Counted from the first letter of the stretch, positions 20,478 through 21,205 are shown. The stretch: 23,574 nucleotides of DNA from a virus (IMGVR_UViG_3300029843_000030); one strand, 5' to 3'. Translations and numbers: made by a program. Notes: generated by a model not told the origin, from the letters alone.

Positions 20478-20601
20478 CGAATGAACTCCAAAAAACACGC
20501 AACAATATTAGGCTTAGCCTAATGCAATTGTCAATAGGCTATGCCTAATACATCGAGAGTAGGGATTGCCTAACGCGATGCGCATAGGAGACTATTAAGC
20601 A
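20478..20601. promoter_or_regulatory. Divergent promoter/operator region between the repressor and ydaS-like genes with TAGGC-N3-GCCTA palindromes
   Basis: Perfect 17-bp palindrome ATTAGGCTTAGCCTAAT (~20507-20523), near-palindrome TAGGCTATGCCTA (~20536-20548) and half-site TGCCTAA (~20566). Confidence 0.6.
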
Positions 20602-21078
20602 ATGCTTAGTGGTAAAGACTTAGGCCGAGCGATAGAGCAGGCCATTAACAAAAAAATTGCATCAGGAGCCGTCAAATCAAAGGCGGAAATCGCACGTCAT
20701 TTCAAAGTCCAACCACCATCAATCCATGACTGGATTAAGAAAGGTTCGATAAGTAAAGACAAACTTCCAGAACTATGGCGTTTCTTTTCTGATGTGGTTG
20801 GTCCAGAGCATTGGGGGCTTAACGAATACCCCATACCAACCCCATCCACTTCAGATACAAAAAGTGAACTTTTAGACATAAACAGCCTTTATCAAGCCGC
20901 CTCTGATGAAAAAAGAGCAATTGTGGCTTTCCTCTTATCTGGAAATGCTACGGAGCCTAGTTGGGTTGATCATGACGTTCGCGCCTACATTGCCGCAATG
21001 GAAATGAAGGTAGCTAACTATCTGAAAAATCAAGAATCAAAACGGAAAAGCCAGAACATCACCAAGACAGGAACTTAA
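20602..21078 (+). CDS. racR: Prophage repressor, RacR-like (158 aa)
   Basis: Divergent from the ydaS-like gene across the operator region; same length as K-12 RacR (from memory). N-terminal helix-rich region. Confidence 0.6.
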   Translation: MLSGKDLGRAIEQAINKKIASGAVKSKAEIARHFKVQPPSIHDWIKKGSISKDKLPELWRFFSDVVGPEHWGLNEYPIPTPSTSDTKSELLDINSLYQAASDEKRAIVAFLLSGNATEPSWVDHDVRAYIAAMEMKVANYLKNQESKRKSQNITKTGT

Positions 21079-21149
21079 ACTTATATGGTCCGACGGGAAA
21101 TTCCTAGTTCCCGTTAGTTAACTCCTACTACCTCTCCCACAAACCATCA

Positions 21150-21205
21150 CCTATTAGGTCGCGCCCAAATTATTAGGCATAGCCTATTGACAAGTAATTA
21201 GGCAC
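21150..21205. promoter_or_regulatory. Second operator cluster (OL-like) downstream of the repressor gene
   Basis: TAGGCATAGCCTA near-palindrome (~21173-21185) plus ATTAGG half-sites (~21153, ~21197), same motif as in 20478-20601. Confidence 0.45.

Follow-up and report, generated by a model that had tools for sequence, protein, structure and literature searches.

Palindromes of the RacR operator type overlap both outward early promoters around racR in an E. coli lambdoid prophage with a DicF/dicB operon

Does RacR control one early operon or two in a prophage that carries a DicF/dicB operon beyond its repressor gene? We analyzed a 23,574-nt stretch of viral DNA (IMGVR_UViG_3300029843_000030), referred to here as the window, which is part of an E. 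coli lambdoid prophage. A preliminary description had reported TAGGC-N3-GCCTA palindromes on both sides of the repressor gene and proposed, on the model of lambda OR/OL, that one repressor serves both operons. Such sites do lie around racR (20602-21078), and the motif is that of the published RacR operator (PMC9638921), in keeping with a single repressor. The late region of the window has antirepressor-like, lysozyme, and Q antiterminator genes, and the following features were recorded there:

3796-4491, minus strand: phage antirepressor gene (ANT/KilAC domain), next to lysis genes
8995-9201 and 9479-9684, minus strand: STnc100 small RNA, two full-length copies, in the late-gene regulatory region
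11110-11356, minus strand: three tRNA genes, in the late-gene regulatory region
12438-13259: Q antiterminator gene, near the STnc100 copies and the tRNAs

Published work on RacR operators deals with the racR-ydaS spacer of K-12 Rac. A 2017 study described GCCTAA/TTAGGC repeats and three RacR-DNA complexes (PMC5700373), the consensus operator (T/A)TAGGC-n3-GCCTA(T/A) with sites O1-O3 followed in 2022 (PMC9638921), and four inverted repeats were counted in the spacer in 2023 (PMC11014345). Footprinting and EMSA cover the K-12 intergenic region only (PMC9638921, PMC5700373); there, the ydaS promoter is protected first, at the lowest RacR concentration tested, and YdaS autorepression has been reported as well (PMC9638921). 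The 2023 paper describes the RacR regulon as still lacking detailed characterization (PMC11014345), and classical genetics had shown the Rac recombination genes to undergo zygotic induction in 1973. Published RNA-seq bears on control of the far side: when RacR is lowered in K-12 by an interfering C protein or by CRISPRi, the left-arm genes (ydaG, ydaF, kilR, ydaE, racC, recE, recT, xisR, and intR) rise 40- to >100-fold. The 40- to 100-fold rise of ydaG, ydaF, kilR, racC, and recE agrees with one repressor for both operons, and the increases could be partly indirect, as YdaS and YdaT are co-induced and the prophage excises. The RacR literature that we searched makes no mention of sites downstream of racR, of a left promoter, or of looping, and the 1990s work on Rac kil may show them; nor did it yield binding or reporter data on the downstream cluster of any RacR-type phage. 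Only the downstream promoter/operator map and the pairing of RacR with dicBF appear to be undocumented.

Three genes of the window set out the repressor and its divergent operon:

19745-20170, minus strand: ydaT-family gene (cII-position regulator; Pfam YdaT_toxin, E=1.5e-9)
20154-20477, minus strand: ydaS-type Cro-like HTH gene, divergent from racR (Pfam YdaS_toxin, E=3.8e-30; P22_Cro, E=1e-8)
20602-21078, plus strand: racR, encoding a 158-aa repressor named RacR in ~99%-identical records

The ydaT-family gene, called a "toxin YdaT family protein" in a 99.3%-identical record, is the second gene of the rightward-equivalent operon, in which replication genes come after ydaS and ydaT. Identity between the window's RacR and K-12-type RacR is 92% over the whole protein and rises to 96% in the first 77 residues. 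It matched no Pfam family, so no S24 peptidase domain was found, and a search for related solved structures returned none. From its sequence, we would not class this protein as a CI/LexA-type cleavable repressor, and because it has no S24 domain, induction is unlikely to proceed by RecA cleavage. The repressor, an ortholog of K-12 RacR, together with its operators and the ydaS promoter, places the region in the RacR immunity family.

The spacer between ydaS and racR holds the first cluster of sites, which we call the left cluster by its position in the window:

20505-20534, minus strand: PydaS, the PR-equivalent promoter (-35 TTGACA at 20534-20529, 18-nt spacer, -10 TAATAT at 20510-20505)
20509-20521: exact operator site and core of the 17-bp palindrome, in the PydaS spacer and overlapping its -10
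20535-20547: exact operator site adjoining the -35 of PydaS; the conserved -66/-67 site of all homologs
20560-20572: operator site with one mismatch, TAGGGATTGCCTA, conserved at -41/-42 from the racR ATG
20596-20608: operator-like site with two mismatches, TAAGCAATGCTTA, whose N3 spacer is the racR start codon

PydaS matches the sigma-70 consensus at 10 of 12 positions, and its K-12 Rac counterpart, with the hexamers TTGACA/TAATAT, was mapped in 2022 by primer extension and -10 mutagenesis (PMC9638921). The perfect 17-bp palindrome that had been placed in the divergent promoter region can be read directly from the sequence at 20507-20523 as ATTAGGCT-T-AGCCTAAT. The upstream sites of the preliminary description are present, and to them must be added a fourth, over the racR start codon. 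This site (20596-20608) has O3 as its K-12 counterpart (PMC9638921) and is likely autoregulatory because the start codon forms its N3 spacer. Counted outward from racR, the operator at 20509-20521 is the fourth upstream site, and it occurs in E. coli-type loci only. These loci have four upstream sites and those of other genera three (loci L008-L014), and the E. coli-type PydaS sits one site further from racR than that of other genera. The extra site looks like a duplication of a ~26-bp operator unit, judging from the arrangement of the sites.

About 100 bp past the racR stop codon lie two strong sites and one weak site, the right cluster, together with a second promoter, which corresponds to PL:

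21092-21115, plus strand: 8-bp hairpin, 14 nt after the racR stop codon, with no U-tract, in a region 0.93 conserved
21155-21167: weak site a, two mismatches, TAGGTCGCGCCCA; only the left half-site ATTAGGT is conserved
21174-21186: exact site b, adjoining the -35 of the PL-equivalent promoter; unchanged across 55 distinct alleles, and shared by K-12 Rac
21187-21215, plus strand: PL-equivalent promoter (TTGACA at 21187-21192, 17-nt spacer, TATAGT at 21210-21215)
21199-21211: site c, one mismatch, TAGGCACTTCCTA, in the promoter spacer and overlapping the -10; its right half-site carries the mismatch
21222-21396, plus strand: predicted 5' leader of the PL transcript, containing a mosaic joint at ~21359-21384

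The PL-equivalent promoter matches the consensus at 11 of 12 positions, the best score in the 2.3-kb region scanned, with a predicted transcription start near 21222. The same scan returned three promoter-like sites in the 2.3 kb, and the best two are the two covered by palindromes. Site a is absent from distant homologs; its status as an operator is uncertain, and it is barely a site. The K-12 version of the hairpin at 21092-21115 keeps the stem with each arm one base shorter, and the hairpin possibly marks the 3' end of the racR transcript. Within the leader, an island at 21261-21330 is 0.94 identical across the 55 alleles and is common to K-12 Rac upstream of ydaG. RNAalifold detected no covariation in the island and Rfam gave no match to it; it could be an antitermination element, a Rho-loading element, or a small leader open reading frame (ORF). 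The span originally described, 20478-21205, does contain the sites, but its end cuts the last of them and leaves out the -10 hexamer at 21210-21215.

The two clusters share a common design. At both promoters, one palindrome adjoins the -35 and another occupies the spacer, with a right half-site that extends into the -10, and the centers of neighboring sites are 25-26 bp apart. The 23-nt operator-plus-(-35) block at 20528-20550 is a perfect inverted repeat of 21171-21193 (100% complementary). The clusters lie over promoters that point away from racR, and racR itself is transcribed towards the distal promoter and in the same direction as it. The comparison with lambda OR/OL holds in these respects, since both clusters overlap strong outward promoters in the same site/-35/site/-10 layout, with the topology of lambda.

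We measured the motif against a composition-based expectation and against the rate of isolated sites in 1.8 Mb of phage and prophage DNA. Exact TAGGC-N3-GCCTA occurs three times in the 23.6 kb (20509-20521, 20535-20547, and 21174-21186), with 0.02 copies expected from composition and none in any of 100 shuffled sequences. Degenerate copies lie at 20560-20572 and 21199-21211 (one mismatch each) and at 20596-20608 and 21155-21167 (two each). Seven of the 11 window matches with two or fewer mismatches fall inside 738 bp, where 0.2 would be expected (Poisson P ~2e-9), and the remaining four are spread over the window at the chance rate. In the 1.8 Mb, 564 exact sites are clustered and three are isolated, the latter equal to the chance rate; as far as these comparisons reach, this answers the objection that the motif might simply occur at random.

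Both clusters are kept alongside RacR homologs from Mixta (64% identical), Proteus (61%), and a Pseudomonadota MAG (58%), and also in two Achromobacter genomes in which the repressor match covers the N-terminal domain only. In distant homologs, the upstream sites stand at -66, -41, and -6 from the ATG, and the downstream pair is spaced 25 bp apart and followed by TTGAC. Ahead of ydaG, K-12 Rac repeats this downstream arrangement of promoter and sites, in the form ATTAGGCATAGCCTA-TTGACA-N4-ATTAGGCATTACCTA-TAGT, and the site/-35/site/-10 architecture of the downstream promoter is present in all lineages compared. Across 55 distinct E. coli-type alleles of the spacer downstream of racR, no change is seen in site b, the -35, or the -10, and the N3 and inter-site bases vary.

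Viral contigs were scanned with the site-plus-(-35) block as the pattern, which does not include the second site, and 120 loci were returned. Two divergent copies of the block are present in 85 of these, mostly 645-647 bp apart (range, 597-2222 bp). Two site clusters are present in 98 of the 120, including 28 loci with repressors 31-79% identical. Almost all instances nonetheless have the second site of the module, 4-7 nt past the -35. That the downstream cluster is kept across such divergent RacR-type repressors argues for one repressor acting on both operons. Among the sequenced phages of a phage collection, only vB_EcoS-683R6 carries most of this immunity region (87% identity). Viral contigs with a ~57%-identical RacR have a gene for a 384-aa HSDR_N-domain protein (type I restriction R, N-terminal) between the repressor and the distal operator pair (7515-8669 in locus L101), and RdgC comes after the distal promoter. 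The HSDR_N gene may be a defense gene expressed in lysogens, because it occupies the slot that lambda uses for rexAB.

The sites follow one part of the repressor in particular. Residues 1-77 remain 68-96% identical across homologs, with the stretch PPSI(H/Y)DWIKKGSISK nearly invariant, and the C-terminal domain is replaced (11-47% identity). A group of ~365-aa repressors (3001-4101 in locus L012 of Achromobacter; also L136, L159, and L014) joins a RacR-type N-terminal domain, 75-78% identical, to a C-terminal Peptidase_S24 domain. The S24-carrying repressors of Achromobacter phages have the same TAGGC-N3-GCCTA operators on both sides. With the N-terminal domain conserved and the C-terminal domain replaced, by S24 in the Achromobacter phages, the operator sequence therefore follows the DNA-binding domain, and a single operator system is thus run by both cleavable and non-cleavable repressors.

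The mosaic structure of the window separates the sites from the genes that they precede. Positions 20147-21384 are Rac-like (86% identical), 21359-21528 and 21942-23574 are Qin-like (90-96% identical), and 21529-21941 match neither Rac nor Qin. The Rac/Qin joint therefore falls in the leader, downstream of the promoter and the sites. No TAGGC-N3-GCCTA was found in the Qin (DicA) region. The downstream cluster stays with the repressor module at the joint, a further point in favor of one repressor for both operons, and the sites travel with the N-terminal domain of the repressor and not with the cargo. Beyond the joint, the operon is composed as follows:

21397-21549, plus strand: DUF1391 gene (ydfA/ydaF type), first of the operon (Pfam DUF1391, E=1.9e-27)
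21549/21561-21935, plus strand: 124-128-aa ORF, in place of Qin ydfB-ydfC, between the DUF1391 gene and DicF
22242-22293, plus strand: DicF small RNA (Rfam RF00039, 76.7 bits, full length)
22468-22656, plus strand: dicB cell-division inhibitor gene (Pfam DicB, E=1.7e-37; DNA 96% identical to Qin)
22653-22844, plus strand: DUF1482 gene (ydfD type; Pfam DUF1482, E=3.7e-25)

The downstream motif copies thus lie ahead of a dicB-type operon, as had been stated, with DicF and dicB further along. The 124-aa ORF matched no Pfam family, and DicF was the only RNA family detected from racR to dicB at a permissive Rfam threshold. The K-12 Rac left-arm cargo, ydaG-ydaF-kilR, is absent here, and Qin-type DicF/dicB cargo takes its place. 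Behind RacR-type promoters in viral contigs, ~90 loci carry dicF/dicB versus ~26 with kilR only (both counts from redundant sets), and the exact arrangement of the window, 124-aa ORF included, recurs in ~20 loci. As both cargo types are common behind RacR, the cargo does not define the RacR-type module. The stretch between DicF and dicB at 22288-22452 is 81% identical to a K-12 Rac segment that begins in the 3' part of the annotated small RNA KilS and ends shortly before kilR (1750-1916 in locus L002); the place of DicF in the window is therefore taken by KilS in K-12 Rac.

With the sites, their non-random clustering, their overlap with promoters, their conservation, and their linkage to the DNA-binding domain of RacR established, we consider it very probable that RacR controls both outward early operons of the RacR-type immunity region through the two clusters. 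RacR dimers would recognize (A/T)TAGGC-N3-GCCTA(A/T). The four sites on the left would cover the ydaS promoter and the racR start and so control ydaS (Cro-like), ydaT (cII-like), and the replication genes. On the right, one site would act next to the -35 and another across the spacer and -10 of the TTGACA-17-TATAGT promoter, which is predicted to drive the DUF1391 gene, the 124-aa ORF, DicF, dicB, and ydfD. Bound RacR would block RNA polymerase at both early promoters; its loss should therefore release both early operons together, DicF and DicB included. We infer from the sites that RacR occupies the right cluster and, from the layout of the operon, that transcription reads through ~1 kb to dicF and dicB. 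De-repression of DicF and DicB on loss of RacR is then a reasonable expectation, given two-operon control and the precedent of DicA and dicBp in Qin.

The right cluster could also be mainly a looping anchor, with RacR bound there contacting the left cluster ~640 bp away, a role that is possible but which we think unlikely to be the main one. Looping would make repression of the ydaS promoter tighter and adjust the autoregulation of racR, leaving control of the right promoter secondary, and it would add to direct promoter control without excluding it. RacR is an octamer by size exclusion chromatography (SEC) (PMC11014345), and in lambda it is likewise an octamer that links OL to OR; matched high-affinity sites would be supplied by the 23-nt block that the two promoters have in common, and the authors of the CP-933P work raised the same idea for octameric PaaR2. 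However, every lineage has the sites placed right over a near-consensus promoter, and for that reason promoter control is the simplest role. The clusters are also separated by anything between 0.6 and 2.2 kb, fixed phasing is not apparent, and the published reading places the octamer, as four dimers, on the four left-hand sites (PMC11014345). We hold only as a tentative idea, by analogy with lambda, that the octamer might bridge both clusters in a ~640-bp loop round racR rather than sit as four dimers on the intergenic sites. On this alternative reading, with the octamer bridging OL and OR, a single bistable switch would govern both replication and DicF/DicB expression in this prophage. Since the N-terminal domain and operators of RacR are also found with S24, the family would offer a natural experiment in which one operator architecture is served by an SOS-cleavable or by a non-cleavable, antirepressor-dependent repressor.

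Direct control of both promoters by RacR might still fall short of dicF and dicB. The sites could be real operators and the transcripts nevertheless be stopped by Rho/NusG or degraded before reaching these genes, so that a further factor is needed; we judge this improbable. It draws on the silencing of kilR in Rac by Rho/NusG, by which token promoter release may not suffice for dicF/dicB ~1 kb downstream, on the conserved leader island at 21261-21330, and on Qin DicF, which depends on processing by RNase E/III and builds up in some conditions only. On the other hand, the distal K-12 genes recE, recT, xisR, and intR rise with the proximal ones when RacR is depleted (RNA-seq), and a terminator scan predicted no intrinsic terminator between the PL-equivalent promoter and dicB. 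Deletion of dicA alone in Qin, moreover, raises the promoter 22-fold and is toxic through DicB/DicF.

A further alternative, and a very improbable one, is that duplication or recombination between the flanks of the immunity region left the downstream copies behind as a relic with no function. Recent gene conversion, instead of selection, could account for the 23-nt perfect inverted copy, but the two-site module and its hexamers are kept with repressors 31-79% identical, at other distances, and beside other neighboring genes, and half-sites and hexamers stay invariant where spacer bases vary. Chance or a relic duplication as the source of the downstream copies was ruled out by this conservation across divergent lineages. 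The least credible proposal is that the downstream palindromes are RNA hairpins terminating or stabilizing the racR transcript and not protein-binding DNA, for although their position 3' of racR and the 5-bp stem with a 3-nt loop that each could make speak for it, 21070-21230 does not fold better than its shuffled versions (z = -1.6; 14 of 200 as good), there is no U-tract, the terminator scan found nothing, the hairpin at 21092-21115 is a better candidate for the racR 3' end, and the same palindromes occur upstream of racR, where such a role cannot apply; with a fold like that of shuffles and no terminator predicted, an RNA-level role was rejected.

Direct control of both early promoters by RacR has a practical bearing on the division inhibitors. 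The left arm of RacR-type prophages is given here a concrete map of its promoter and operators. RacR, and not DicA, would govern the dicF/dicB inhibitors in many E. coli strains, in which case the timing of DicF/DicB in K-12 Qin is not transferable without checking the upstream repressor. Our understanding of lambdoid immunity in general is unchanged by these results.

Among the closest known systems, K-12 Rac shares the operator consensus, the ydaS promoter hexamers, four intergenic sites including one over the racR ATG, and also the downstream promoter and site pair. It differs in its cargo, ydaG-ydaF-kilS-kilR in Rac and the DUF1391 gene, 124-aa ORF, DicF, dicB, and ydfD here, and its ydaT belongs to a different allele group. 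The DicA/DicC-dicBp region of Qin has the same dicBF cargo operon (ydfA-type gene, DicF, dicB, and ydfD), with ydfB and ydfC replaced here, and follows the same logic, in which operator triplets let a short, SOS-insensitive repressor repress both a cro-like gene and the dicBF promoter. However, the Qin repressor, DicA, and its operators differ, TAGGC-N3-GCCTA is absent, and homology with the window starts at ~21359, past the promoter.

The PaaR2/YdaS region of CP-933P (PR, PRM, PL, and OL1-3) is likewise a lambdoid immunity region of the ydaS/ydaT type with an octameric repressor. Its second promoter lies beyond the repressor operon, has the -35 and -10 of PR and operators of its own, and its regulation was seen with reporter fusions. 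The repressor and the operator sequence (GTTTAGTAA repeats) are nevertheless different, and PL is separated from the repressor by a toxin-antitoxin pair. Gifsy-type repressors, to which RacR has been likened in the literature, are also short, lack a cleavable domain, and are inactivated by antirepressors. The window does contain an ANT/KilAC-domain gene, but no LexA box was found near it, and LexA-box matches across the window are at chance level; its ANT protein as an antirepressor of RacR is a lead only.

In lambda OR/OL, the repressor gene likewise has an outward early promoter on either side, and several imperfect palindromes overlap each of the two. The centers of the lambda operator sites are spaced much like the 25-26 bp seen here, the lambda repressor is also octameric, and the lambda left-arm operon also has host-killing and recombination functions. 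The operator sequence of lambda is unrelated to the RacR sites, and its repressor is of the S24 type, unlike RacR, whose C-terminal domain is not an S24 peptidase and for which RecA cleavage is not expected. The two clusters are ~640 bp apart here versus 2.3 kb in lambda, with two strong sites on the left-arm side, not three as in lambda, and four on the other, and no N-type antiterminator like that of lambda was identified here. The reading of this part of the window as a lambdoid two-sided immunity region, built on the plan of OR and OL, is thus supported.
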